DNA from: a virus
Lineage: Duplodnaviria > Heunggongvirae > Uroviricota > Caudoviricetes
Direction: 5' to 3' (one strand)
Length of the DNA: 37,809 nt
IMG/VR virus record: IMGVR_UViG_2657245124_000003
This document shows positions 267 through 30,205 of this stretch, piece after piece (within the stretch, counting starts at the first letter, position 1; each line of letters opens with the position of its first letter). The notes beneath the pieces are model-generated. The model did not search any database, was not told the origin of the DNA, and saw nothing but the letters and a program-made list of their open reading frames with translations. A program made the translations under genes and the position numbers.

Positions 267-320
267 CCTGTTTACCTCTTTCTCAGGAAGTTTAGTCTCC
301 AGGATTCCCGGGGCGGTTCA
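1..320 (-). mobile_element. IS3-family insertion sequence (IS629/IS1203-like), terminal part; element continues beyond window start
   Basis: Reverse complement of 253-320 reads TGAACCGCCCCGGGAATCCTGGAGACTAAACTTCCTGAGAAAGAGGTAAACAGGATGACTAAAAATAC, which I recognise as the IS629-type terminal inverted repeat plus orfA start; the orfA product begins [32 protein letters not shown]... with the RELRRSNDI leucine-zipper region. Confidence 0.85.
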
Positions 321-651
321 TTCTTTCCCGATAAGTAGCAAACATATTTTTGTCAAACTGAGAAGCAAATGGATCTCCCAGCCTGGAACAAATCGCCTCA
401 AGTTTGACTTTGCGCTCTGCACCAGAGGACAAGGTTTTACCGTACATCTCAAACCAACGAGCAATCAACTCAGAAAGACGAGGACCAGAACCATCTTGAA
501 ACTCGTCTCCAACTCTACTATTCATTAAACGGCGCTCATAAGAGAGCGCCTCACTTTTTGTCGCAAACTGTTTACGTATGCGTTTTCCCGATGCCCCGTA
601 GGGATAACATTCGCAAAGCCATTTACCTGATGGAATCTTACGAACCGACAT
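321..651 (-). pseudogene. int: P2-type tyrosine integrase, N-terminal ~110 codons only, interrupted by the IS element
   Basis: ORF 292..651 starts MSVRKIPSGKWLCECYPYGASGKRIRKQFATKSEALSYERR..., resembling the P2 Int N-terminus (GKRIRRKFDKKSEA...RLSEL...); the reading frame runs into the IS terminal repeat at 320, so the last codons (NRPGNPGD) are IS-encoded. Confidence 0.75.
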
Positions 652-656
652 TTTAG

Positions 657-1004
657 TTACTTATCACATAAATCAAATGCAGCCTTAGTGACATCCCCCA
701 GACTCTTTTTTAACCCTGGGGCGGCATCATTATCTAGCCAAAATGGATTATTGTTATCTAACGGTAACGCACCAAATGTTTTACCTTTTATTCGAGCCAA
801 ACCTGTAAGTGCATATAACTTATTATCGTCAAAATTCATCACATAAGGATTACCATCAAGACACTGTAATTGAACCTCATCAGTATTAAATGGCCATACC
901 CCATTGAAACTCTCACGTTCAATAGTTTTAAAAGGCATTGCGAGGGCGGAAAAAGAAAACATAGATAAAAAAGTAACTAATAGTTGAACCTTTTTTACTT
1001 TCAT
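657..1004 (-). CDS. small secreted/periplasmic protein of unknown function (signal peptide, two Cys)
   Basis: 115 aa; N-terminus MKVKKVQLLVTFLSMFSFSALA is a typical Sec signal peptide; AT-rich codon usage unlike the phage core. Confidence 0.5.
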   Translation of the reverse strand: MKVKKVQLLVTFLSMFSFSALAMPFKTIERESFNGVWPFNTDEVQLQCLDGNPYVMNFDDNKLYALTGLARIKGKTFGALPLDNNNPFWLDNDAAPGLKKSLGDVTKAAFDLCDK

Positions 1005-1033
1005 ATCATTACCTCAATTTAGCTCAAGTAAGA

Positions 1034-1684
1034 TTACAAATTAAAAAACGCCCTAGAAATAACACCTCCTACCAAAACCCCTACGCAGATAAAGAATATT
1101 ATTTCTTTTGGATAAAGTCGGATTAATTCTGAAGCACGAAGTCGGACTTCTGGTAAGGTCGAACTCTCTGTGTGGCTTGATGCCGATTGTTGCTCTAACC
1201 ACGACAATGCAGACTGTAACTGAGAACGAGTAAGATCGTTTAAACGTCCTGTACCGAAATTGATATGGCAATACCGCAGAAGTTTTTGTCGAAGTCCACA
1301 GTCTTCACTGTTACGTAGTAATAAACTTACAAGAGCCTTACAGGCATCATGATCTTTACATCGCTCAAGCATTGCATGCAGAAAACTCTCCGCTGTTTTA
1401 TATTGATTTACTGTCATATCATCAATACCAGCTACACCAATCTCCGCATGTACTTTTTGCCAAATAATAAACGCTTCAGTATTGCTAGCTTCTGCAATAG
1501 CAGCAACCAAGCTATTTAGCTCCTTACGCTGAGCCTTAAGCAAAGGGCGATCGTCATCATCATTATTCGAAGGGATTGCGATATTGACGGTCTGAGAACC
1601 ATCATATCGCTCTATCTGAATATTCTTTTCGTGAAAATCACGCCCAGCAACGCGATTGTTTGAACCGTTTGAGTTGACGGCCAT
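1034..1684 (-). CDS. tail-anchored membrane protein of unknown function (candidate prophage exclusion/cargo protein)
   Basis: 216 aa; soluble N-terminal domain and a single C-terminal hydrophobic helix (IIFFICVGVLVGGVISRAFF); AT-rich; sits directly downstream of the repressor on the same strand. Confidence 0.5.
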   Translation of the reverse strand: MAVNSNGSNNRVAGRDFHEKNIQIERYDGSQTVNIAIPSNNDDDDRPLLKAQRKELNSLVAAIAEASNTEAFIIWQKVHAEIGVAGIDDMTVNQYKTAESFLHAMLERCKDHDACKALVSLLLRNSEDCGLRQKLLRYCHINFGTGRLNDLTRSQLQSALSWLEQQSASSHTESSTLPEVRLRASELIRLYPKEIIFFICVGVLVGGVISRAFFNL

Positions 1685-1699
1685 GTCACCTCCCTACTA

Positions 1700-2104
1700 T
1701 CACCTACCCTTAGTTTCGTTATAGTCACGACCAGCGATACGGTTTTTACCACCAGAAATATTTAACTCACGTCCTGATGGCTGAGTTTCCTTTTCACTGA
1801 TCGCACCTTTTAAAGCCCCAATCACCGCGTTTTTCACATCTAACGAAGCTGCTCGAAAGCGAGTAATCAACTCCTGCTCATCATCGTTATAAGTTTCAGG
1901 TGAGTGAATTCCCAACACAACATACTGAACATCAAGGCCAAAACGAGACAGCGCTGCCAAATACGCAGCATCAGGAAAGCTATCTCCTTTCTCATATCTA
2001 AGCTGAGTTAGCTTTTTGACTCCACCAATGTCGCTCATGGCAACTTGACTAAGTCCCAATCTTTCCCTTTCCTCACGCAACCGCTGACCAATATCATTTT
2101 TCAT
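1700..2104 (-). CDS. CI-type prophage repressor (XRE-family HTH)
   Basis: 134 aa; N-terminus IGQRLREERERLGLSQVAMSDIGGVKKLTQLRYEKG is a classic XRE helix-turn-helix; transcribed divergently from the early operon, as for P2 C / 186 cI. Confidence 0.7.
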   Translation of the reverse strand: MKNDIGQRLREERERLGLSQVAMSDIGGVKKLTQLRYEKGDSFPDAAYLAALSRFGLDVQYVVLGIHSPETYNDDEQELITRFRAASLDVKNAVIGALKGAISEKETQPSGRELNISGGKNRIAGRDYNETKGR

Positions 2105-2179: not shown

Positions 2180-2386
2180 ATGAAACAAGTTCTTCACGAT
2201 ACCAGATCACGCATTCCGCGTAACACCGCCACAGGTCCAAGACTGGCACTTCGGCTGTCCCTCGAGGAGCGAGCCGTCATTGATGAAATGGCAGCTAAAG
2301 AACAACGCTCATCCTCTAACATGGCGCGCATGATCTTCCTTCGCGGCCTAGAGCTAACCCAGAAAGAACAAAACAAATCTTCCTGA
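2180..2386 (+). CDS. small early regulatory protein (first gene of early operon; possible ribbon-helix-helix)
   Basis: 68 aa, position equivalent to cox/apl/cro; LSLEERAVIDEMAAKEQRSSSNMARMIFLRGLE resembles small RHH-type regulators. Function inferred from position only. Confidence 0.4.
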   Translation: MKQVLHDTRSRIPRNTATGPRLALRLSLEERAVIDEMAAKEQRSSSNMARMIFLRGLELTQKEQNKSS

Positions 2387-8934: not shown

Positions 8935-9780
8935 ATGACAAAGCCTTCTCATTTTAGAACCCCTCTTCGTTATCCGGGAGGTAAGGCAAAATTCTTGCCA
9001 CATATTGAACAAATACTCCGCAACAATGATCTCATTGGTGGATGTTATGCTGAACCTTATGCAGGTGGAGCCGGTGTAGCATTAGGTTTGCTCCTTAACG
9101 GTCTTGTTGAAAATATCTTCATAAATGATATTGATCCTGCCCTTTATTCTTTTTGGTTTGCAGTGGTTAATCATAACGATCTGTTATGTGAAATGATTGA
9201 TGAAGTTCCTGTGACTATTGAAAATTGGCATACTCAAAAGGAGATACTCCTAAACAATGATAAATATAGTATGCTTGAAGTCGCATTATCAACTTTCTTT
9301 TTAAATAGAACAAACCGTTCAGGAATACTTAAGGCTGGCGTTATTGGAGGGAAAGAACAAAAAGGACCATGGAAGTTAGATGCAAGATTCAACAAAAAAG
9401 AGTTAATTAAAAGGATTGAACTAATTGGTGCATATAAGGAGAAAATTTACGTATCGAATTTTGATGCTGTAGATTTTCTGCTACACCAAAAAGCATTGCT
9501 ACCCCAAAATAGTCTAATATATCTTGATCCACCTTATTATGTTAAAGGAGCAGAGTTATATAGAAATTTTTATAAACATGATGATCATGTAAAAATCGCT
9601 AATACACTACGGGAAATTCAACTACCTTGGGTTGTGTCTTATGACAATGTGCCTGAAATAAAAAGCATATATCATGAATTCAACATGACTGATTATACGC
9701 TTAATTATACTGCACAAGATAAGAAAAAAGGTCTAGAAATTATCATTTATAATCATGGTATAAAAATCCCTGACATTTAA
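8935..9780 (+). CDS. D12-class N6-adenine DNA methyltransferase (Dam-like)
   Basis: 281 aa; motifs YPGGK, EPYAGGAG (FxGxG SAM-binding), FLNRTNRSG and DPPYY (motif IV) in the order characteristic of Dam-family methyltransferases; strongly AT-rich compared with flanking phage genes. Confidence 0.8.
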   Translation: MTKPSHFRTPLRYPGGKAKFLPHIEQILRNNDLIGGCYAEPYAGGAGVALGLLLNGLVENIFINDIDPALYSFWFAVVNHNDLLCEMIDEVPVTIENWHTQKEILLNNDKYSMLEVALSTFFLNRTNRSGILKAGVIGGKEQKGPWKLDARFNKKELIKRIELIGAYKEKIYVSNFDAVDFLLHQKALLPQNSLIYLDPPYYVKGAELYRNFYKHDDHVKIANTLREIQLPWVVSYDNVPEIKSIYHEFNMTDYTLNYTAQDKKKGLEIIIYNHGIKIPDI

Positions 9781-9797
9781 ATTTAAGGATGATATAG

Positions 9798-11495
9798 ATG
9801 ATTAAAGAAATTAGTTTTAAAAAATTTAAGAAACTGATAGATATTGACTTCTCATTCAATGAAGACATCAATATAATATCAGGAACCAATGGGACATGTA
9901 AGACAACATTGCTTCATTTAATTAGCAATGGTTTCCAAATGCCACCATCTCGATCACAAAATTATTCAAATAGTAATTGTGTTAGAGTTATAAAATCTAT
10001 AAACAAAATAGCCAACCCCAAAATGGAAGCAATTGTTAGGGAATCAAAAAATTACACCGATCCGGCAGAGGGAACAAAAGGTGTGTTATTTTCTATTAAC
10101 TATTTGGATCATAGCACACTAGACTTCAGAAAGCACAACTCAAAAAATCCAGACGAAGCGCAACGGTATGCTATCAAACCAGTATACCCACGCGGAAAAG
10201 AAAAACAATCACTTCCAGCTAAACCAGTTTTATATCTTGGATTATCGCGACTATTCCCGATTGGTGAAACTAAAGACGACGCCCTTACAAAAATTCCGTT
10301 AAACCTACCAGAAGAGTATGTTGGTTATATATCGAAAATATATAATGAACTTTTGGGCATTAATATTATAAATATAGAATCAAACAATATCGGAGATTTT
10401 AAAGCTGGCCCATTATTTGATACCGATAACCCAGCAATTGATTCTAATACCATATCATCCGGGGAAGACAATATATTCATTATAATCAAGGCATTAGTTA
10501 GCCTTAGGTATTATTTTGAATCACTTATTCAATCCACTGATCAAAAAGAAAGCATTCTGTTAATAGATGAATTTGATGCCACTTTACATCCTTCTTTACA
10601 GATAAGATTATTAGATAAAATTTATCAATACGCAAAAGATTATAAGATTCAAGTATTTTTCACAACGCACAGTCTGACATTGCTAGAATATGCTTTTCAT
10701 AAAAAATACCATGTTGTCTATCTAATTAACAATATTACAAAGGCTCTGCTTTTAGATAATCCTGACATATTAAAAATAACAATGTATCTGAAAACACAAA
10801 CAAAGGATGAGATATACACAAGGAACAAGATACCAGTTTTCACGGAAGATGAAGAAGCTCGCTTTTTATTTAATGAAATACTTGGTTATTGGATAAGCAA
10901 ATATCCAAATTTTGCTATAGTTAGTAATTCATTTCACTTAATTGATTGTTTCATTGGTGCAGACAATTTAAAAACTATTTTTAATGATTCTCATCTTAAG
11001 GAAACCTCGTTAAAATCAATTTGTATTCTTGATGGAGATCACAGCCCTGAGGATCAGAGAGGAATTATATCACTGCCGGGAGAAAAAGCTCCAGAACAAT
11101 TGATATTTGAGCATTGTGAGCACCTTTATAATACCGACGACTCTTCCTTCTGGGAAAATCAGGATATAATTAACAATGGTTTTTCGAAAGAGTTATACTT
11201 ACTCAAGATACGTCCTCAACTACAATCAATTGAAACTGAAATTCAGAAAAGAAAAGACAACCATGAGTCTACATCCGGTTTAAGAAGAAAATTAAATAAG
11301 AAAATATTCAATCAGCATATTGAATTCTTTAGAATGATTACAAGAAACTGGTTAGACAAACCAGAAAATCAGAAATCTCTCCAGTATTTTTACAATGGAT
11401 TACGATCCTTATTCTACCGGGTTACACCAACAAACGGCATTGACAGAAAAATTTGGGATTTTGACTATAACAAAATCATTAAAGAGGATAAATAA
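9798..11495 (+). CDS. ABC-type ATPase with C-terminal TOPRIM-like region (OLD-family / fused PARIS-like nuclease candidate)
   Basis: 565 aa; Walker A GTNGTCKTT, signature-like SSGEDN, Walker B LLIDEFDATLHP, H-loop FFTTHS; C-terminal region has a conserved acidic patch (VFTEDEE) followed by a DxD-type motif (ILDGDH), consistent with TOPRIM/DUF4435. Only 17 bp from the methyltransferase stop, same strand. Confidence 0.6.
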   Translation: MIKEISFKKFKKLIDIDFSFNEDINIISGTNGTCKTTLLHLISNGFQMPPSRSQNYSNSNCVRVIKSINKIANPKMEAIVRESKNYTDPAEGTKGVLFSINYLDHSTLDFRKHNSKNPDEAQRYAIKPVYPRGKEKQSLPAKPVLYLGLSRLFPIGETKDDALTKIPLNLPEEYVGYISKIYNELLGINIINIESNNIGDFKAGPLFDTDNPAIDSNTISSGEDNIFIIIKALVSLRYYFESLIQSTDQKESILLIDEFDATLHPSLQIRLLDKIYQYAKDYKIQVFFTTHSLTLLEYAFHKKYHVVYLINNITKALLLDNPDILKITMYLKTQTKDEIYTRNKIPVFTEDEEARFLFNEILGYWISKYPNFAIVSNSFHLIDCFIGADNLKTIFNDSHLKETSLKSICILDGDHSPEDQRGIISLPGEKAPEQLIFEHCEHLYNTDDSSFWENQDIINNGFSKELYLLKIRPQLQSIETEIQKRKDNHESTSGLRRKLNKKIFNQHIEFFRMITRNWLDKPENQKSLQYFYNGLRSLFYRVTPTNGIDRKIWDFDYNKIIKEDK

Positions 11496-24777: not shown

Positions 24778-25378
24778 TTCGTTGTTACCACCATCAGCCA
24801 GCAATTTCATGCGTTGTGCCGAAGCCGTCGGAACACGCATTACAGACATTCCGGTAGACCTCAACACGCTGTGGTCGCCGGACACCTGCCCGGTGCATCT
24901 GCTGCCTTATCTCGCCTGGGCGTTTTCCGTTGACCGCTGGGATCGCAACTGGCCGGAAGAGACAAAGCGACAGGTGATTCGTGATGCATGGCTGATACAC
25001 CGACACAAAGGGAGCATCAGCGCACTGCGAAGAGCCGTGGAGCCTCTCGGCTACCTGATTGAAGTAAAGGAGTGGTGGCAACTCAACGAGGAGCCGGGAA
25101 CATTTCGCATTGTTGTCGGAGTACTTGATCAGGGCATCACCGATGAAATGCATCAGGAACTTGAGCGCCTTATTGCGGATGCAAAACCAGTAAGTCGCCA
25201 TCTGACGGGGCTGGCGATCAGCCTGAGTGTGAACGGAAAGATTTTCGTTGGTACGGGATGCTATCACGGCGATGCCCTGACGGTTTATCCCTACACCCCG
25301 GAGTCCATTATTGTCGAAGGGGACTATTTCCCTGCCCCGGCCATTCATTTAATTGATAATCTGAGAGTAAACGCATGA
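24770..25378 (+). CDS. I: baseplate protein (P2 gpI-like)
   Basis: ATG at 24770 overlapping the J stop (MSNSLLPPSASNFMRCAEAV...). Confidence 0.7.
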   Translation: MSNSLLPPSASNFMRCAEAVGTRITDIPVDLNTLWSPDTCPVHLLPYLAWAFSVDRWDRNWPEETKRQVIRDAWLIHRHKGSISALRRAVEPLGYLIEVKEWWQLNEEPGTFRIVVGVLDQGITDEMHQELERLIADAKPVSRHLTGLAISLSVNGKIFVGTGCYHGDALTVYPYTPESIIVEGDYFPAPAIHLIDNLRVNA

Positions 25379-26970
25379 CAGTGAAATACTACGCTATTCT
25401 GACTAATCAGGGCGCGGCACGACTGGCTAACGCGACGATGCTCGGCAGTAAACTGAATCTGACGCAAATGGCCGTTGGTGATGCAAATGGTGTGTTACCA
25501 ACACCAGCCCCTGCACAAACAAAACTGATTAACCAGAAACGCATTGCACCGCTGAATCTTCTGAGTGTTGACCCTAACAATCAGAGCCAGATTATTGCGG
25601 AGCAAATCATCCCTGAAAACGAGGGAGGATTCTGGATCCGTGAGATTGGTCTTTATGATGATGAAGGTGTACTCATTGCGGTGGCAAACTGCCCGGAAAC
25701 GTACAAACCGCAGTTGCAGGAAGGCAGTGGACGCACCCAGACTATCCGCATGATTCTGGTTGTCACGAACACCGAAGCCATCACGCTGAAAATCGACCCG
25801 TCTGTGGTTCTGGCAACCCGCAAATATGTGGATGATAAAATATCAGAGCACGAACAATCACGACGTCACCCGGACGCCTCGCTGACCGTAAAAGGTTTTA
25901 CTCAGTTAAGCAGTGCAATTAACAGTGAATCAGAAACACTGGCCGCAACACCGAAAGCGGTTAAGGCTGCATATGACCTGGCTAACGGGAAATATACCGC
26001 CAAGAACGCCACCACTACACAAAAAGGGATTGTTCAGCTCAGTAGCGCCACGAACAGCACGTCTGAAACGCTGGCAGCGACACCAAAAGCTGTTAAGGCG
26101 GTAATGGATGAAACGAACAAGAAAGCACCATTAAACAGCCCGGCACTGACCGGAACGCCAACAACACCAACAGCGCCACAGGGGGCTAATAGTACCCAGA
26201 TCGCAAGCACGGCTTTCGTTATGGCCGCGATTGCCGCACTTGTAGATTCGTCACCTGATGCACTGAACACGCTGAACGAACTGGCTGCGGCGCTGGGCAA
26301 TGACCCGAATTTTGCGACCACCATGACTAACGCGCTTGCGGGTAAGCAACCGAAGGATGCCACCCTGACGGCGCTGGCGGAGCTTGCTACATCAGCAGAT
26401 AAACTCCCATATTTTACAGGGGCAGATCGTGCCGCGTTAACCGCGTTGACAAGTGTTGGACGTGCCATTCTTGGTAAAACCAGCACTCAGGGAGTTCTTG
26501 ATTACCTTGGTTTAGGAGAAGGTTCTGCACTGCCCGTTGGTGTGCCCGTTCCGTGGCCCTCAGCAACACCACCAACGGGCTGGCTGAAATGTAACGGTGC
26601 AGCATTTTCTTCTGAAATGTACCCCAAACTGGCAAAAGCCTACCCCACCAATAAATTACCGGATTTACGCGGTGAATTTATCCGTGGCTGGGATGATGGG
26701 CGCGGGGTGGATGCCAGAAGGGGCATCTTAAGCATGCAGGGGTGGTTAACAGGAAGTCATTATCATAATATTCGGTCATGGGACGCGTGGGATAACACGG
26801 TACTGGTGCCAAATGACAAAGGAGGGGATAGTCTGTTGTCGACAGATAACGCCGTCCGGCAAGGTGCAATTAACGGTAGATTTACCAGTCAATACAGAAC
26901 GGAATCCTCAGAGGGGAATGAAACCCGCCCACGCAATATTGCCTTCAATTATATTGTGAGAACCGCATAA
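25375..26970 (+). CDS. H: tail fibre protein (P2 gpH-like) with collar domain and variable C-terminal tip
   Basis: 531 aa; repeated ETLAATPKAVKA tail-fibre repeat motifs; C-terminal Phage_Tail_Collar-like segment GWLKCNGAAFSSEMYPKLAKAYPTNKLPDLRGEFIRGWDDGRG; ends ...RPRNIAFNYIVRTA. Confidence 0.8.
   Translation: MTVKYYAILTNQGAARLANATMLGSKLNLTQMAVGDANGVLPTPAPAQTKLINQKRIAPLNLLSVDPNNQSQIIAEQIIPENEGGFWIREIGLYDDEGVLIAVANCPETYKPQLQEGSGRTQTIRMILVVTNTEAITLKIDPSVVLATRKYVDDKISEHEQSRRHPDASLTVKGFTQLSSAINSESETLAATPKAVKAAYDLANGKYTAKNATTTQKGIVQLSSATNSTSETLAATPKAVKAVMDETNKKAPLNSPALTGTPTTPTAPQGANSTQIASTAFVMAAIAALVDSSPDALNTLNELAAALGNDPNFATTMTNALAGKQPKDATLTALAELATSADKLPYFTGADRAALTALTSVGRAILGKTSTQGVLDYLGLGEGSALPVGVPVPWPSATPPTGWLKCNGAAFSSEMYPKLAKAYPTNKLPDLRGEFIRGWDDGRGVDARRGILSMQGWLTGSHYHNIRSWDAWDNTVLVPNDKGGDSLLSTDNAVRQGAINGRFTSQYRTESSEGNETRPRNIAFNYIVRTA
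26495..26520 (+). promoter_or_regulatory. hix/gix-like recombination (crossover) site inside the tail fibre gene
   Basis: TTCTTGATTACC-TT-GGTTTAGGAGAA: two 12-bp imperfect inverted half-sites around a 2-bp core, resembling the Hin/Gin/Cin site consensus (..AAACC-NN-GGTTT..); encodes the DYLGLGEG junction. Confidence 0.5.
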
Positions 26971-27581
26971 TGAATAACGCGATATTAAATGATGACCTTA
27001 TTGCCGTACAGGCAGGAAACATCGTCGTTTATAACTATGATGGTGAGACACGGGAATATATTTCCGAATCAACTGAATATCTTGCTGTGGGTGTTGGTAT
27101 TCCGGCTAATTCCTGTTTAGATGCCCCAGGCGCACATAAATCTGGCTATGCTATTCGCCGTTCGGAGGATTTAAATTCATGGGAGTATGCGCCAGACCAT
27201 CGTGGTGAAACCGTCTATAGCACTGACACGGGAAACACCGAAGAAATCACGGCGCTGGGTGACTACCCGAAAAATACAACCACTATCGCCCCGTTAACAC
27301 CATACGATAAATGGGATGGTGAAAAATGGGTGACAGATACTGAGGTACAACATCGTGCCGCAGTAGAAGCGGCAGAAACCAAGCGCCAGTCACTGGCTGA
27401 TGCGGCAATGGATTCCATAAGTCTGATTCAGTTGAAGTTGCGGGCCGGGCGGAAGTTGACGCAGGCAGAAACCACCCGGCTTAATGCCGTGCTGGATTAT
27501 ATAGACGCGCTGAACGCAATGGATATAAACATGGCACCAGATATCAACTTGCCGGAAATACCACTGGCATCAGCCAGTTGA
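26970..27581 (+). CDS. G: tail fibre assembly chaperone (P2 gpG/Tfa-like)
   Basis: 203 aa; C-terminal region (LNAVLDYIDALNAMDINMAPDINLPEIP) of typical Tfa type; immediately follows H. Confidence 0.7.
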   Translation: MNNAILNDDLIAVQAGNIVVYNYDGETREYISESTEYLAVGVGIPANSCLDAPGAHKSGYAIRRSEDLNSWEYAPDHRGETVYSTDTGNTEEITALGDYPKNTTTIAPLTPYDKWDGEKWVTDTEVQHRAAVEAAETKRQSLADAAMDSISLIQLKLRAGRKLTQAETTRLNAVLDYIDALNAMDINMAPDINLPEIPLASAS

Positions 27582-27587
27582 ATATAA

Positions 27588-28064
27588 CTAAGCCGCCCTC
27601 ACGATATAGTTAAATGCAATATTGCGGGGGCGGGTTTCACTACCACCTGTGTTACCAATACTTCCTCGTGAATGAAGCGTTGGTGATGGAATCAAACTCC
27701 CTCCTGTATTTGTGGCATCAAGCCCCCTGCCTTGTGTATATGTTTTTTTGAAAATCGTAGCCAACTCCCATTCATCTTTTGTGTCATATCCATCGTTAGC
27801 TACAACAATATGGCGGTGTTTTTCCAACATCCCGTTTTGAATGCTCAATAAAGCGCGTGCCGCATCAATTCCTCGCCCATCATCCCAGCCACGGATAAAT
27901 TCTCCGCGTAAATCCGGTAATTTATTGGTGGGGTAGGCTTTTGCCAGTTTGGGGTACATTTCAGAAGAAAATGCTGCACCGTTACATTTCAGCCAGCCCG
28001 TTGGTGGTGTTGCTAAGGGCCATGGAACAGGCACACCAACGGGCAGTGCAGAGCCTTCCCCCAA
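27588..28064 (-). other. silent tail-fibre C-terminal cassette 1 (collar domain plus variable tip; no ATG start)
   Basis: Begins at the LGEGSALPVGVPVPWP... junction (TTG called as start), shares about 68 aa with the H collar region, then a unique tip, ending RPRNIAFNYIVRAA; crossover-like site TTCCCCCAAACCAACGTTTTCATGC at 28056-28080. Confidence 0.7.
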
Positions 28065-28074
28065 ACCAACGTTT

Positions 28075-28578
28075 TCATGCGGCTCTTACGATGTAATTGA
28101 ATGCAACGTTGCGAGGGCGAGTTTCTGTACCTACATTTCCACTAATTTTACCAAACTGTTTTATATTACGAGAGCTAATGGCTCGTAGTGAGGAAGGCAC
28201 CCTTAAACCGGGTTCGTCTGTTTTAACTATTCCCCCGTCCCCGTATGTAGCCAGTATTCCAGGGTTTAATCCTTCCCGTGCACTTTCCACGGCAAGTCCG
28301 TTCCCGGTCCATAATTCCATATAGTGTGCATGATCCAAAATTGTGTGTGGCTGCCAATTAAGCAAAGCGCGGCCAGCATCCACCCCGCGCCCATCATCCC
28401 AGCCGCGAATAAATTCTCCCCGTAAATCCGGTAATTTATTTGCGGGGTAGGCTTTTGCCAGTTTGGGGTACATTTCAGAAGAAAATGCTGCACCATTGCA
28501 TTTCAGCCAGCCCGTTGGTGGTGTGGCTGAGGGCCATGGAACGGGCACACCAACAGGCAGCGCAGAACCTTCCCCCAA
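28075..28578 (-). other. silent tail-fibre C-terminal cassette 2
   Basis: Same conserved N-terminal collar segment and C-terminal RPRNVAFNYIVRAA with a different middle region; crossover-like site at 28570-28594 overlapping the stop of cassette 3. Confidence 0.7.
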
Positions 28579-28588
28579 ACCAACGTTT

Positions 28589-29017
28589 TCATGCTGCCCT
28601 TACGATGTAATTAAACGCAATATTACGAGGACGAATGGTTACATAATTGACCCCATCACCTCGTGAAGGCCCTGCAAATGAAAAACGGGAAAAGCTTGGT
28701 TGGTTAGAAACAATTTGGTCATAGTTATTGATTGAATGACCAGACCCAATGTCGAAATTACCTCCGTAATGAGAAAAACTTGTACCATCCTGCCCTGAAA
28801 GCAGGGTACGTCCCGCATCAATCCCGCGCCCATCATCCCAGCCACGGATAAATTCACCGCGTAAATCCGGTAATTTATTGGTGGGATAAGCCCTTGCCAG
28901 TCTGGGATACATTTCAGAAGAAAATGCTGCGCCGTTACATTTCAGCCACCCCGTTGGTGGTGTTGCTGAGGACCACGGAACGGGCACACCAACGGGCAGC
29001 GCAGAGCCTTTCCCCAA
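28589..29017 (-). other. silent tail-fibre C-terminal cassette 3
   Basis: Same architecture; crossover-like site at 29009-29033. Confidence 0.7.
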
Positions 29018-29027
29018 ACCAACGTTT

Positions 29028-29591
29028 TCATGCTGCCCTTACGATGTAATTAAACGCAATGTTGCGTGGGCGGTTTTCGTTTGCAGTTGGAACAATTTTT
29101 GAAGCATCAAGGCCAATCACTTTTGGGTAAACAACGCCGTCTGTCCTTTCTGTCACCATACTTCTGACTAAGGAGAAATAACTATTGTTTGTTGAGGAAT
29201 TTAAAGGCACCACTGCCCCCTTAAACGAGCCTACTGATTCCCATATTGAATAATTTTCAGTGTTTACAGTCTTGAACTCACCATAGATATTACGTATGGC
29301 ATCACCTTGAGCGGATAATATTGTTCTCCCCGCATCCGCACTACGTCCATCATCCCAGCCACGAATAAATTCACCCCGTAAATCCGGTAATTTATTGGTG
29401 GGGTAAGCCTTTGCCAGTCCGGGATACATTTCAGAAGAAAATGCTGCGCCGTTACATTTCAGCCAGCCCGTTGGTGGTGTTGCTGAGGGCCACGGAACGG
29501 GCACACCAACAGGCAGCGCAGAACCTTCCCCCAAACCAACGTTTTCGTTTTTATCCCTACCTATACCAACTATGTATTTTTCACGAAACAA
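29028..29591 (-). other. silent tail-fibre C-terminal cassette 4
   Basis: Same architecture; the conserved segment starts at about 29534; crossover-like site at 29526-29551; the upstream extension to 29591 is probably not translated. Confidence 0.65.
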
Positions 29592-29605
29592 AGAGGATGT
29601 TTTTT

Positions 29606-30205
29606 ATGCAAATTGGCTATATTCGTGTGTCAACAAATGACCAGAACACGGATTTACAACGCAATGCACTGAACTGCGCAGGATGTGAACTGATTTTTGA
29701 AGATAAAATCAGCGGAACGAAATCAGCCAGACCGGGATTGAAAAAACTGCTCAGAACGCTATCAGAAGGAGATACGCTGGTTGTCTGGAAGCTGGACAGA
29801 CTGGGCAGAAGTATGAAACACCTGATCACGCTTATTGAGGAATTGCGGGAAAAAGGTGTTAATTTCCGTAGTCTGACGGACAGCATTGACACATCAACAC
29901 CCATGGGGCGTTTCTTTTTTCACGTCATGGGGGCTTTAGCCGAAATGGAACGTGAATTAATTGTAGAGCGTACACTGGCCGGGCTGGCAGCAGCACGCGC
30001 ACAAGGACGCATTGGCGGACGTCGCCCGAAGTTGACAAAAGAACAACACGAGCAAATAGCGAGGCTGATTAAAAACGGTCATGACAGGAAACAACTGGCG
30101 ATCATTTACGACATCGGCATATCGACGATTTATCGTTATCACCCTGTAGGCGATATACAGGCTGAAGAAACAACCAGGCAGACTCAGGAAAATGAAAACC
30201 GCTAA
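29606..30205 (+). CDS. serine recombinase, DNA invertase (Hin/Gin/Cin/Pin family)
   Basis: 199 aa; MQIGYIRVSTNDQNTDLQRNAL...VVWKLDRLGRSMKHLI...C-terminal HTH (GISTIYRY) is the resolvase/invertase signature with the catalytic Ser in the IRVST motif. Confidence 0.85.
   Translation: MQIGYIRVSTNDQNTDLQRNALNCAGCELIFEDKISGTKSARPGLKKLLRTLSEGDTLVVWKLDRLGRSMKHLITLIEELREKGVNFRSLTDSIDTSTPMGRFFFHVMGALAEMERELIVERTLAGLAAARAQGRIGGRRPKLTKEQHEQIARLIKNGHDRKQLAIIYDIGISTIYRYHPVGDIQAEETTRQTQENENR

Follow-up and report, generated by a model that had tools for sequence, protein, structure and literature searches.

[quoted passage not shown] The window, i.e. the whole stretch of 37,809 nucleotides that was analysed (IMG/VR virus record IMGVR_UViG_2657245124_000003), had previously been read from the sequence alone, and positions 657-2104 were then taken as a cargo pair and a candidate for superinfection exclusion or abortive infection. 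This span holds both genes, here called ORF216 and ORF115, but it also includes the repressor gene (1700-2104).

The repressor-integrase interval

The minus strand of the window contains a run of four closely spaced genes in the order repressor, ORF216, ORF115 and an int gene truncated by an insertion sequence. The two extra genes on the repressor strand, ORF216 (1034-1684) and ORF115 (657-1004), are thus placed as first described. The region contains the following features:

1-~320, minus strand: end of an IS3-family insertion sequence that interrupts int; the IS end and the start of the transposase are visible
292-651, minus strand: truncated P2-type integrase, an ORF of 119 aa (Pfam Int_N, 3.5e-15)
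657-1004, minus strand: ORF115 (115 aa), predicted secreted protein of the DUF2511/YebY family, variable cargo in the window copy (Pfam, PHROG and PDB matches)
1034-1684, minus strand: ORF216 (216 aa), predicted tail-anchored inner-membrane protein of the Flk_N family, conserved partner of the repressor (NCBIfam, Pfam and PHROG)
1049-1108, minus strand: predicted C-terminal membrane anchor of ORF216, residues ~193-212 (hydrophobicity, AF2 and alignment)
1169-1549, minus strand: helical Flk_N core of ORF216, residues 46-172, with two helical sub-domains (AF2 and alignment motifs)
1628-1678, minus strand: "head" peptide of ORF216, residues 3-19, VNSNGSNNRVAGRDFHE (match to the repressor tail)
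1700-2104, minus strand: immunity repressor (134 aa) with an XRE-type HTH, a helix and a C-terminal tail (profile matches)
1715-1765, minus strand: "tail" peptide of the repressor, residues 114-130, LNISGGKNRIAGRDYNE (match to the ORF216 head)
2105-2179, no strand: control region from which the repressor and the early operon diverge (promoter-like site)
2180-2386, plus strand: Arc/RHH-like early-operon regulator (so annotated in phage 520873)
2403-2606, plus strand: Cox-like early-operon regulator (so annotated in phage 520873)

The gaps along the run, from the repressor to int, are 15, 29 and 5 nt, ribosome-binding sites precede ORF216 (GGAGG) and ORF115 (GAGG), and a simple consensus scan of the minus strand found no terminator-like site inside the run. 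The short gaps (5-29 nt), the ribosome-binding sites and the lack of a terminator-like site suggest that the four genes would be transcribed as a single message from the repressor promoter in the lysogen. The divergent control region contains a promoter-like TTGACA-17-CAAAAT on the plus strand (2114-2142), and its position probably corresponds to that of Pe/Pc in P2. The Arc-like and Cox-like genes are kept opposite the repressor in all related loci. The run is best explained as a P2-type lysogenic operon with two functionally separate additions, ORF216 and ORF115. Both additions are AT-rich, as had been reported, with GC contents of 41.2% in ORF216 and 35.3% in ORF115, compared to 44.0% in the repressor gene and 51.2% in the whole window.

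The repressor gene is divergent from the Arc/Cox-like early genes, and its product matches HTH_31, HTH_19 and HTH_3 in Pfam, RstR/DicA-like families in NCBIfam, and phrog_8 along with other regulator and repressor PHROGs. Nothing outside the HTH/XRE-type families was found in the Pfam, NCBIfam and PHROG scans, and since all database matches are of this type there is no hint of RecA-type self-cleavage. At the other end of the run, int is interrupted by an IS3-family element at window positions 1-~320, which we take to be IS629-like. Bases 1-323 match the transposase regions of Stx phages at 98-99.7%, and homology to intact prophages begins at base 321. In NZ_CP119006, int is intact at the same position and encodes 333 aa. 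Intact copies are also carried by E. coli strains such as CE0021a and AR_0013. The region 321-2700 was found at a coverage of at least 80% in 504 of 5,426 complete E. coli genomes (~9%).

ORF216 as a constant part of the immunity module

To the question of whether the two genes belong together, the comparison of loci gives a clear answer. In all of the approximately 100 loci from public genomes and IMG/VR that were fetched via ORF216 homologues and had an identifiable repressor ORF, a homolog of ORF216 directly follows a repressor of related type, in more than 15 genera and with any cargo. The Cox and Arc genes point away from the repressor, which is followed by the Flk_N gene, a slot of 77-1851 bp and int. 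The slot contains at least nine unrelated alternative cargo types with GC contents of 30-45%, including a TIR-domain protein (L020) and BRCT/WYL-like and PDC-S48-like proteins. Repressor homologs without the C-terminal tail (L162 and L165) are directly followed by cargo or int. The gene order in Erwinia is different.

Position between repressor and int, co-orientation and varying content, which characterise a cargo hotspot, are all seen for ORF115, whereas ORF216 is constant. These comparisons show that ORF216 belongs to the immunity module rather than to the cargo, and that ORF115 is the exchangeable cargo of the window copy. The idea of variable, AT-rich cargo at the repressor-int junction thus holds, with at least nine types and precedents in K139 and in Rousset et al. 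2022, but not for ORF216. Recurrence at other junctions, proposed earlier as a check, likewise held for the variable content but not for the gene pair, which does not recur as a unit. An obligate pair is out, since the cargo varies and DUF2511 genes occur without a Flk_N gene in the phages PSP3 and SEN1, and with ORF216 invariant beside the repressor and ORF115 replaceable, the proposal that the two form one module fails as well.

The junction between the repressor and ORF216 is also of a recurrent type. In most Enterobacterales loci, ORF216 starts 9-15 nt past the repressor stop codon in a TAA-GGA-NNN-NNN-ATG junction; the genes overlap (ATGA) in distant loci. The ribosome-binding site overlaps or abuts the repressor stop, which implies translational coupling and a fixed ratio of repressor to ORF216.

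The sequence-only reading recognised neither protein and proposed remote homology and structure prediction as checks. Both proteins fall in described families, DUF2511/YebY for ORF115 and Flk_N for ORF216. Residues 35-166 of ORF216 align to positions 18-149 of the NCBIfam Flk profile (E=7.8e-16), its homologs have precomputed matches to Pfam PF27202 (Flk_N), and the match to phrog_5825 has a value of 6.6e-103. The homologs are 57-68% identical, mostly 209-216 aa long and present in at least 15 Enterobacterales genera, which argues for a real gene rather than a chance ORF. A search of the PDB sequences with ORF216 gave nothing meaningful.

ORF216 consists of a 17-residue N-terminal head, a linker, the helical Flk_N domain and a C-terminal anchor. 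In agreement with the single anchor described earlier, it contains one hydrophobic segment, which is located at the extreme C-terminus (residues ~193-212; maximal 17-residue Kyte-Doolittle value 2.42), where the AF2 model has a helix (192-215) and the alignment of the homologs shows a conserved "YPKE + hydrophobic run". ORF216 is therefore predicted to be a tail-anchored inner-membrane protein with its bulk in the cytoplasm and essentially nothing in the periplasm. The helical core is modelled with a pLDDT of about 80-89, contains the motifs LLLRNS and FGTGRLNDL that are invariant in the homologs, and shows weak fold similarity to ORF6C and to the C-terminal bundles of Red-beta/RecT. The head is disordered in the monomer model (pLDDT about 41-44) and undocked from the helical domain.

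Both the Flk_N domain and the tail-anchored topology resemble Flk ("Fluke", RflH) of Salmonella and E. coli, in which Flk_N is followed by a single C-terminal anchor and the bulk of the protein is cytoplasmic (PMC13344023, where a two-hybrid interaction with FlhA-C was also examined). Like chromosomal Flk, ORF216 could act on the flagellar type III export gate and thereby cause motility conversion or protect against flagellotropic phages, but we consider this very improbable. Against the Flk equivalog (PRK10715), ORF216 scores 58.3 bits compared to a cut-off of 353 bits, and full-length equivalence is not reached. True Flk is 333 aa long and starts with MQPxSGP, without the head of ORF216, whereas ORF216 has 216 aa and lacks the N-terminus and the long linker of Flk. 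Consistently, a library search separated a class of 185-225 aa with the head from a class of 320-410 aa starting with MQPxSGP. Furthermore, ORF216 adjoins a phage repressor gene, and its hosts include non-flagellate bacteria. Members of the family are frequent in Klebsiella pneumoniae, in which one variant was found on 754 contigs by homology search and in 1,158 index blocks of an assembly collection, and they are also present in the insect symbionts Arsenophonus and Symbiopectobacterium. Klebsiella is classically non-flagellate, and it is on this host distribution that a flagellar role is rejected, which would also leave the co-variation with the repressor unexplained. The diverse Flk_N alignment was too variable for scanning of loci. 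In one protein (P0257), a Flk_N-like region comes after an N-terminus of XRE-like type, which is marginal evidence for a fusion (E=7.8e-4).

The matching peptides of the repressor and ORF216

The last ~17 residues of the repressor match the first ~17 residues of ORF216, and the two peptides co-vary between lineages. In the window, 9 of 17 residues are identical between the tail and the head (E=1e-4). The same motif was found in all of 47 distinct repressor/ORF216 pairs except for the truncated or miscalled ORFs of two loci (L016 and L019). The distant lineages, including L103, L106 and L107, have other motifs, each of which matches that of its own partner, as exemplified by the pairs QQFNGPVGTVTTGDVVN / QQFHGAVEQVAAGDIKN in L020, FNAPISGGEFAARDIVN / FNNQIHDGQFAGRDIVN in L022 and GDVLGNVIKGDVT / GDVGNVVSGDVT in L105. 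The mean head/tail score was 55 for cognate and 28 for non-cognate combinations, compared to 18.3 +/- 4.2 for shuffled tails, and 100,000 permutations all stayed below the cognate total. When the pairs were sorted into motif classes, which number only seven and are not fully independent, the cognate pairing ranked first among 5,040 permutations, above the other 5,039. The scores of 11 distant Flk_N partners (29-42) are at or below the 99.9th percentile of the null (42). The head/tail logic also holds for downstream partners from outside the Flk_N family (L142, L151, L172 and L185).

At the nucleotide level, the codons differ at 50 of the 101 identical head/tail residues and the identity is 53-70%, suggesting that the similarity is kept at the protein level. 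The same numbers led us to reject recent gene conversion as the source of the likeness. Read-through or ribosome hopping that would yield a repressor-ORF216 fusion is also rejected, since there are three tandem in-frame stop codons (TGA TAG TAG) in the window, the relative frame of the two genes varies by lineage (gaps of -4, -1, 2, 8, 11 and 13 nt), and no nucleotide-level match between a take-off and a landing site was found at the junction.

We suggest, with about even confidence and on the strength of these sequence comparisons, that ORF216 is tethered to the membrane and sets or modulates the lysogeny switch as a titrator, anti-repressor or decoy of the repressor, with ORF115 as separate cargo. 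The head of ORF216 would copy the C-terminal tail of the repressor, and as the two change together between phage lineages, they presumably must contact each other or one common surface. By mimicry, ORF216 could then retain some of the repressor molecules, or factors binding to their tail, at the membrane. The effect might be to stabilise lysogeny, to sense a membrane signal for induction or to shield the repressor from anti-repressors. The disordered, undocked head of the monomer model, the low scores of the 11 distant partners, the small number of motif classes, the marginal fusion hit and the tails or heads that occur without a partner weigh against this reading. More tentatively, and with somewhat less than even confidence, the pair may represent an undescribed type of wiring between repressor and membrane, in which a lineage-specific pair of matching peptides would allow a membrane protein to capture, titrate or shield the repressor or to report a membrane or infection signal to the lysogeny switch.

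Regulators tied to membrane partners are exemplified by the anti-sigma/ECF sigma pair RseA-sigmaE and by the membrane sequestration of Mlc by PtsG. The closest analogies to the proposed role of ORF216 are a membrane anti-sigma/sigma pair and the restraint of a cytoplasmic partner from the membrane by Flk, an action that is only proposed for ORF216. The likeness to RseA-sigmaE is functional, in that the genes of a DNA-binding regulator and of a membrane protein with a single pass would share a transcript; in the case of ORF216, the regulator may bind to the membrane protein in the cytoplasm. There is, however, no homology to RseA-sigmaE or Mlc-PtsG, the anchor of ORF216 is C-terminal and lacks a periplasmic sensor domain, and recognition would be mediated by matching short peptides.

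Alternatively, the head and the tail could both serve as peptides by which a third party recognises its targets. This might be a protease or chaperone, or an anti-repressor encoded by the phage itself, by a competing phage or by a P4-like satellite, and ORF216, tethered to the membrane, would protect or tune the repressor by acting as a decoy or competitor. A single lineage-specific binder that both peptides must fit would equally lead to their co-variation at the protein level, and the head is undocked in cis in the AF2 model. Four repressor homologs (L169, L176, L184 and L188) have a tail-like motif and no detectable downstream partner, and one locus (L104) encodes a Flk_N-like protein with a head and no HTH gene upstream, suggesting that each peptide has some function alone. 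According to passages in PMC9122126 and PMC13586616, the same hosts commonly carry P4-like satellites able to derepress P2-type helpers. We nevertheless regard a third party as unlikely: no third protein with the motif was found in the prophage, within the ORFs of the window the motif occurs only twice, as the tail and as the head, a conserved host protease leaves the lineage-specific changes of the motif unexplained, and a pure decoy role does the same for the large conserved helical domain.

The gene arrangement also resembles the grammar of type II toxin-antitoxin operons, with an XRE-HTH gene first and the second gene 9 nt on or in ATGA overlap. If ORF216 were a latent membrane toxin or abortive effector, with the repressor as an antitoxin that acts via its tail, loss or inactivation of the repressor would unleash it in an addiction or guard system. 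The C-terminal tail of the regulator as a contact element, a membrane protein as the partner, and the weak, HTH-level similarity of the repressor to the antitoxins MqsA and HipB and to the PADLOC RmrA models would fit such a system. It is nonetheless improbable, since a housekeeping regulator that is not toxic has the same Flk_N fold, the only anchor of ORF216 is short and pore-like features are missing, and head/tail mimicry is foreign to toxin-antitoxin systems. ORF216 had no match among the toxin families of Pfam and PADLOC. Frameshifted copies of ORF216 exist in one deposited phage genome, but they say little, as int is also split there and sequence quality may be the cause.

What is new in these sequences is the match between the repressor tail and the ORF216 head and its co-variation between lineages, while the cargo slot and both protein families were already known. 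A search of a library of open-access papers on Flk in prophages, membrane-anchored anti-repressors and the RefSeq accessions found no paper on the repressor-ORF216 module. P2-like prophages are among the most common prophages in Enterobacterales, and the immunity type linked to ORF216 occurs in about one in eleven complete E. coli genomes (~9%), in many Klebsiella and in P2-like phages of more distant hosts. In textbooks, the P2 switch consists of two proteins, C and Cox. Should ORF216 prove to be tethered to the membrane as a partner of the repressor, a large branch of the P2 family would have a switch with a third conserved component, so far overlooked, the short peptide match might represent a specificity code, and ORF216 could help to explain prophage induction or the resistance to derepression by satellites and rival phages. 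If the match has no functional consequence, the finding would be that of an ordinary moron, the DUF2511 gene, at a known hotspot.

ORF115 and the variable slot

ORF115 matches Pfam PF10709 (DUF2511) with 28.3 bits (gathering cut-off 21) over profile positions 2-87 of 87, and it can therefore be considered a real gene. It also matches phrog_2950 (3.8e-39) and, distantly, the E. coli protein YebY (PDB 7N0J; phmmer E=0.003). The signal peptide suspected earlier is supported by classical Sec features at the N-terminus, MKVKKVQLLVTFLSMFSFSALA|MP, in which a basic n-region and a hydrophobic core are followed by ALA ahead of the predicted cut. The protein has exactly two cysteines (48 and 113) and Trp37, at the hallmark positions of DUF2511, where a strictly conserved Cys48-Cys113 disulfide and a conserved Trp37 are found in the DUF2511/YebY family (PMC8689200). 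The signal peptide and these residues are shared with YebY and with MlbQ of Microbispora. The gene is, however, phage-borne, between the phage Flk_N gene and int and outside any yobA-yebZ-yebY (CopC-CopD-YebY) operon, and from this context ORF115 is a member of the DUF2511 family rather than an orthologue of YebY. Based on its sequence, ORF115 is predicted to be periplasmic and disulfide-bonded, and it is presumably expressed in the lysogen.

The same position is occupied in other P2-related phages. In the record of Vibrio phage K139 (NC_003313), cI-orf2-glo-int is annotated as a lysogenic operon (Nesper et al. 1999, as cited in a passage of PMC4870250) and Glo as a periplasmic phage-exclusion protein. 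The window prophage resembles K139 in that extra genes on the repressor strand are located between the repressor and int, for which transcription from the lysogenic promoter is annotated in K139, and in that this interval encodes a small periplasmic protein. Furthermore, a homolog of the BRCT protein Orf2 of K139 (33% identity, E=3e-51) is found in the slot of Kosakonia-type relatives of the window prophage. K139 differs in that its repressor is of the CI type (Phage_CI_repr and CI_C) and has neither a Flk_N partner nor the head/tail motif, and Glo has no sequence similarity to ORF115. In the Salmonella phages PSP3 and SEN1, a DUF2511 gene is placed exactly at the repressor-int junction (cI-orf28-int), and DUF2511 at the cI-int junction in Enterobacteriaceae is also noted in PMC8689200. 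However, the identity to ORF115 is only 28.7%, and these phages have a repressor of the 186/CI type and no Flk_N gene.

By analogy with these proteins, the role of ORF115 is most likely at the level of the envelope, either in exclusion, as for Glo, or in the modulation of copper import, as for YebY. Of the two genes, it is only ORF115 for which exclusion or abortive infection is a plausible function, given the analogy with Glo. As a lysogenic-conversion gene for envelope physiology rather than exclusion, ORF115 might dampen YebZ-type copper import or bind peptide antibiotics like MlbQ. It bears the DUF2511 hallmarks, and YebY is a periplasmic protein that reduces the uptake of copper via YebZ and is structurally similar to MlbQ, which binds lantibiotics (PMC8689200, PMC11923076). 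The kinship to YebY is distant, though (E=0.003 against 7N0J), the prophage has no CopC/CopD partner, other loci have defence-like cargo in the slot, and Glo excludes phages from the same position, all of which makes such a conversion role rather doubtful.

That ORF216 and ORF115 would jointly exclude superinfecting phages or abort infection, as do lambda rexAB or sieB, has some appeal: both genes are in the repressor-int operon, AT-rich and envelope-located, Glo is annotated in phage exclusion at the same position, and the junction is a recognised defence hotspot with defence-like cargo in sister loci (TIR in L020, and the BRCT/WYL-like and PDC-S48-like proteins). We find it improbable nevertheless. 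ORF216 is constant while ORF115 is one of at least nine alternatives, the Erwinia order differs, and DUF2511 stands alone in PSP3 and SEN1. Neither protein matched any family of the PADLOC-DB 2.0 defence models at E<=0.1, and Glo lacks similarity to ORF115. Having nothing in the periplasm would be unusual for an injection blocker, and unlike the varying defence cargo, ORF216 co-evolves with the repressor. With lambda rexAB and sieB, the genes share co-expression with a prophage repressor in the lysogen but no homology, and ORF216 follows a peptide of its repressor instead of being an independent cassette.

The separation of ORF216 from the cargo fixes the boundaries of the variable slot, from ORF216 to int, and allows sharper searches for lysogen-expressed defence and conversion genes; the slot has so far yielded TIR, BRCT/WYL-like, K139-Orf2-like and DUF2511 genes. 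For K139-like phages, a hotspot between repressor and int has been described (Rousset et al. 2022, PMC9122126; NAR 2026, PMC13586616), in passages that mention neither a constant Flk_N gene nor a head/tail relationship. The window prophage differs from this hotspot in that its true variable slot begins only past ORF216. The gpA-gpQ hotspot of the window prophage is also occupied.

The immunity region

The left end of the window belongs to a P2-like prophage (Peduoviridae, Xuanwuvirus-type) and has a minus-strand run of four ORFs, separated by successive gaps of 15, 29 and 5 nt.

Features at the left end of the window
1700-2104, minus strand: XRE-type helix-turn-helix (HTH) protein, 134 aa
1034-1684, minus strand: ORF216, tail-anchored protein
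657-1004, minus strand: ORF115, secreted protein
292-651, minus strand: P2-type integrase, first ~110 codons only
1-~320: IS3-family element, interrupting the integrase gene

All matches of the HTH protein in the Pfam, NCBIfam and PHROG scans are to HTH/XRE-type regulator families, and since Arc-like and Cox-like early genes lie opposite to it, we read it, by position and family, as the immunity repressor. Annotations of the early-operon start (2180-2386) disagree: the phage 520873 record has a 68-aa Arc-like repressor on the plus strand, and RefSeq (relative locus L002, 5874-6011) has a 45-aa hypothetical protein, placed there by PGAP on the opposite strand. Every related locus retains the Arc-like ORF. 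Good ribosome-binding sites precede ORF216 and ORF115, and a consensus scan of the minus strand of the run found no terminator-like site. The sequence-only reading had noted two extra, co-oriented and AT-rich genes between the repressor and int, in agreement with the ORF coordinates and with GC contents of 35.3% for ORF115, 41.2% for ORF216 and 44.0% for the repressor, as compared to 51.2% for the window. Of 5,426 complete E. coli genomes, 504 carry this 2.4-kb region, annotated as [quoted passage not shown].

The sequence is homologous to intact prophages from base 321 onward; transposase regions of Stx phages match at bases 1-323. The window starts inside the IS3-family element, presumably IS629-like, which breaks int after about codon 110, and the prophage is thus probably unable to excise by itself.

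A constant partner gene and an exchangeable slot

About 100 loci with a homolog of ORF216, a member of the Flk_N family, were collected from reference genomes of many genera, IMG/VR and contig look-ups. They come from Escherichia, Shigella, Klebsiella, Raoultella, Enterobacter, Kosakonia, Citrobacter, Serratia, Erwinia, Mixta, Izhakiella, Rosenbergiella, Hafnia, Symbiopectobacterium and Arsenophonus. In every locus of this set with an identifiable repressor ORF, Arc and then Cox are transcribed in one direction, and the repressor, the Flk_N gene, a slot for variable cargo and int follow each other in the other. The start of the Flk_N gene is usually 9 or 15 nt past the repressor stop codon, at a junction that typically reads TAA-GGA-NNN-NNN-ATG. 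Since a Shine-Dalgarno sequence overlaps the stop, the junction sequence implies translational coupling of the two genes.

The slot is AT-rich, 77-1851 bp long, and holds at least nine unrelated cargoes: DUF2511 in 45 loci, mostly in E. coli, a BRCT + WYL-like protein in 15, a homolog of Orf2 of phage K139 in 10, a small acidic protein in 10, and, in fewer loci each, membrane proteins, a Zn-ribbon-like protein, tail-anchored coiled-coil proteins and a secreted protein. A TIR-domain protein occupies the slot of a distant relative. The BRCT + WYL-like protein is the commonest cargo in Klebsiella; it has 288-295 aa, with a BRCT domain at the N-terminus and a weak likeness to WYL in the middle (L003:4647-5513 in Klebsiella and L011:5635-6513 in Enterobacter soli). 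In Erwinia, the DUF2511 gene precedes the Flk_N gene instead of following it, and in PSP3 and SEN1 it lies between cI and int, with another repressor type and without a Flk_N gene. DUF2511 in a phage cI-int context was already remarked upon by the authors of the YebY structure (PMC8689200).

Because Flk_N is constant after the repressor while the slot cargo varies, ORF115 is an exchangeable cargo, and ORF216 belongs to the fixed set of genes in immunity regions of this type. The two genes are thus not the unit proposed in the sequence-only reading, and the variable slot lies between Flk_N and int.

ORF115 scores above the Pfam threshold for DUF2511, matches the solved YebY structure 7N0J, and carries the features of a classical signal peptide at its N-terminus. 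Its hallmarks are at the YebY positions, namely Trp37 and its only two cysteines, 48 and 113, which form a disulfide in YebY (PMC8689200). The evidence supports no more than a DUF2511 cargo that is periplasmic, disulfide-bonded and presumably expressed with the repressor. In the K139 record, cI-orf2-glo-int is annotated as a lysogenic operon in which Glo is a periplasmic protein involved in phage exclusion, and Rousset et al. 2022 list the interval between cI and int of K139-like phages as a defence hotspot (PMC9122126). ORF115 may act in phage exclusion, as Glo does, or in envelope or copper physiology, as YebY does (PMC8689200, PMC11923076). A sequence comparison of Glo and ORF115 revealed no similarity, and the PADLOC defence models matched neither ORF115 nor ORF216. 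The earlier suggestion of an exclusion module is then only partly supported, as a reasonable analogy to Glo and the hotspot that may hold for ORF115 and does not extend to ORF216.

K139 Orf2 (NC_003313, 2194-3099) is a BRCT-domain protein, and its homologs (33% identity, E=3e-51) lie in the repressor-int slot of Kosakonia/Enterobacter-type prophages (L013, L015, L071 and L073, e.g., L013:5663-6538). This cargo type, which also matches the PADLOC candidate PDC-S48 (1.4e-8), is common to P2-like phages of Vibrio and Enterobacterales whose repressors are unrelated. The cargo side of the window is ordinary, with ORF115 a member of a known family at a known hotspot.

ORF216 and the matching peptides

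The match of ORF216 to the flagellar regulator Flk covers the N-terminal 130 residues (E=7.8e-16) and is far under the full-length cut-off, and homologs of ORF216 are assigned to the newer Pfam family PF27202, "Flk_N"; neither this protein nor ORF115 had been recognized from sequence alone. The single hydrophobic segment is at the extreme C-terminus, and sequence and AF2 model agree with the anchor proposed earlier; the signal peptide proposed for ORF115 agrees with its sequence. Flk is a cytoplasmic protein whose C-terminal anchor holds it at the inner membrane (PMC13344023), a topology that ORF216 shares. A flagellar role like that of Flk is very unlikely, since the Flk_N-type family is abundant in Klebsiella and in symbionts. 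The AF2 model, built from 16 homologs, contains a confident helical core at residues 46-172 (pLDDT about 80-89) and a terminal helix, and the N-terminal 40 residues, including the peptide here called the head, are disordered in the monomer. Fold searches gave weak leads only: ORF6C-type phage regulatory domains, and the C-terminal bundle of Red-beta/RecT, which is small and binds peptides. Residues 49-110 weakly match anti-repressor PHROGs.

A Flk_N profile search of 1.84 billion representative proteins recovered only 138 members of the family, which fall into two size classes, one of ~185-225 aa with the N-terminal head and one of ~320-410 aa, the true Flk proteins, without it. Two proteins from this search may be natural fusions: in P0257 (239 aa), a Flk_N-like region (E=7.8e-4) comes after an XRE-like HTH N-terminus, and P0230 (270 aa) has half a Flk_N domain (E=1.1e-5) after an N-terminus that is Rha/Ant-like by eye. 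Among 50,697 deposited phage genomes, the ORF216 gene was found only in phage 520873 and, weakly, in three Ralstonia phages. In phage 520873 (NC_049344, 1039-3065), frameshifts split int as well as ORF216 and ORF115, the latter two unannotated; these frameshifts may reflect sequence quality rather than biology.

The C-terminal peptide of the repressor, the tail (residues 114-130, LNISGGKNRIAGRDYNE), is identical to the head of ORF216 (residues 3-19, VNSNGSNNRVAGRDFHE) at 9 of 17 positions (E=1e-4), and the window has no further in-ORF copy of the motif. The match recurs in all 47 distinct Enterobacterales repressor/Flk_N pairs, save two loci with truncated or miscalled ORFs. More distant head-bearing members are found in other P2-like phage genomes, directly after an HTH repressor of the same family. 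The motif differs in these lineages, yet matches its own partner.

Tail and head peptides in relative loci
L020: tail QQFNGPVGTVTTGDVVN, head QQFHGAVEQVAAGDIKN
L022: tail FNAPISGGEFAARDIVN, head FNNQIHDGQFAGRDIVN
L103: tail QVFHGKVGQSIAGNV, head QVFREDVGQAVAGDL
L105: tail GDVLGNVIKGDVT, head GDVGNVVSGDVT
L106: tail VFHGQVGQAIK, head DFHAEVGQVIQ
L107: tail VTGSKNRTAGRDYHE, head VDGSENRTAGRDYLE

For ten pairs, the mean tail-head score is 55 for cognate versus 28 for non-cognate combinations, and in 100,000 permutations no total was as high as the cognate one. For seven motif classes the cognate pairing ranks as the single best of 5,040, and shuffled tails score 18 +/- 4. Codons differ at 50 of the 101 identical residues and the nucleotide identity is 53-70%, which argues against recent gene conversion as the cause of the likeness and indicates that the similarity is kept at the protein level. 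If the peptides had diverged independently after an old duplication, cognate ones would not be more alike than non-cognate ones, so tail and head must be co-evolving.

The reciprocal search, which started from the repressor, comprised 80 IMG/VR loci with 57 distinct repressor homologs, and the score threshold was set to 42, the 99.9th percentile of the null. The downstream protein was Flk_N by HMM in 20 loci above this threshold and in another 11 with scores of 29-42, where the match was usually obvious by eye and sometimes hidden by a miscalled start. Four further loci (L142, L151, L172 and L185) scored above 42 with partners that the Flk_N HMM did not recognize, which shows that the head/tail logic extends past one protein family; such head-bearing proteins have 118-269 aa, some without a membrane anchor. 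Tail-less repressor homologs (L162 and L165) are followed directly by cargo or int. The exceptions are L169, L176, L184 and L188, in which the repressor has a tail-like motif and the partner is absent, and L104, in which a head-bearing Flk_N-like protein has no HTH gene upstream. Since tails without a partner and a head without a repressor exist, each peptide must also have a separate function of its own, for which self-association of the repressor is one candidate in the case of the tail.

Building on the constant gene order, the compact coupled junction, the topology of ORF216 and the head/tail co-variation established here, we propose that head and tail contact each other or one common surface. 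ORF216, fixed to the membrane and in a fixed ratio to the repressor, would capture or compete for the repressor or tail-binding factors. Among working analogies, the closest are the pairing of a membrane anti-sigma factor with its sigma factor and the restraint of the export gate by Flk. ORF216 could sharpen the switch by titration, relay a membrane signal that leads to induction, or protect against anti-repressors, among them those of P4-like satellites. We rate lower a toxin-antitoxin-like guard with ORF216 as the effector, and likewise ORF216 as a decoy for a third party. No description of a constant Flk_N partner with a repressor peptide match was found in the open-access literature searched; the matching peptides are the new observation.

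Defence hotspot and invertible tail fibres

The known gpA-gpQ defence hotspot is also occupied in the window.

Genes within 8935-11495
methyltransferase, 281 aa, PADLOC PD-Lambda-5_B (E=8.7e-122)
AAA ATPase, 565 aa, PtuA/AriA/GajA/HEC-04-like matches

A multi-cassette invertible tail-fibre system is located at 25375-30205.

Features of the tail-fibre region
25375-26970, plus strand: fibre gene H
26970-27581, plus strand: assembly gene
27588-28064, 28075-28578, 28589-29017 and 29028-29591, minus strand: four promoterless alternative fibre-tip cassettes, each with a Collar domain
within 29411-30205, plus strand: serine invertase (Resolvase + HTH_7)

Inverted repeats of 211-240 nt (90-92%) pair 26499-26738 in H with each cassette. 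Since they link H to all four, five fibre tips would be possible, as compared to two in the Mu Gin and P1 Cin systems.
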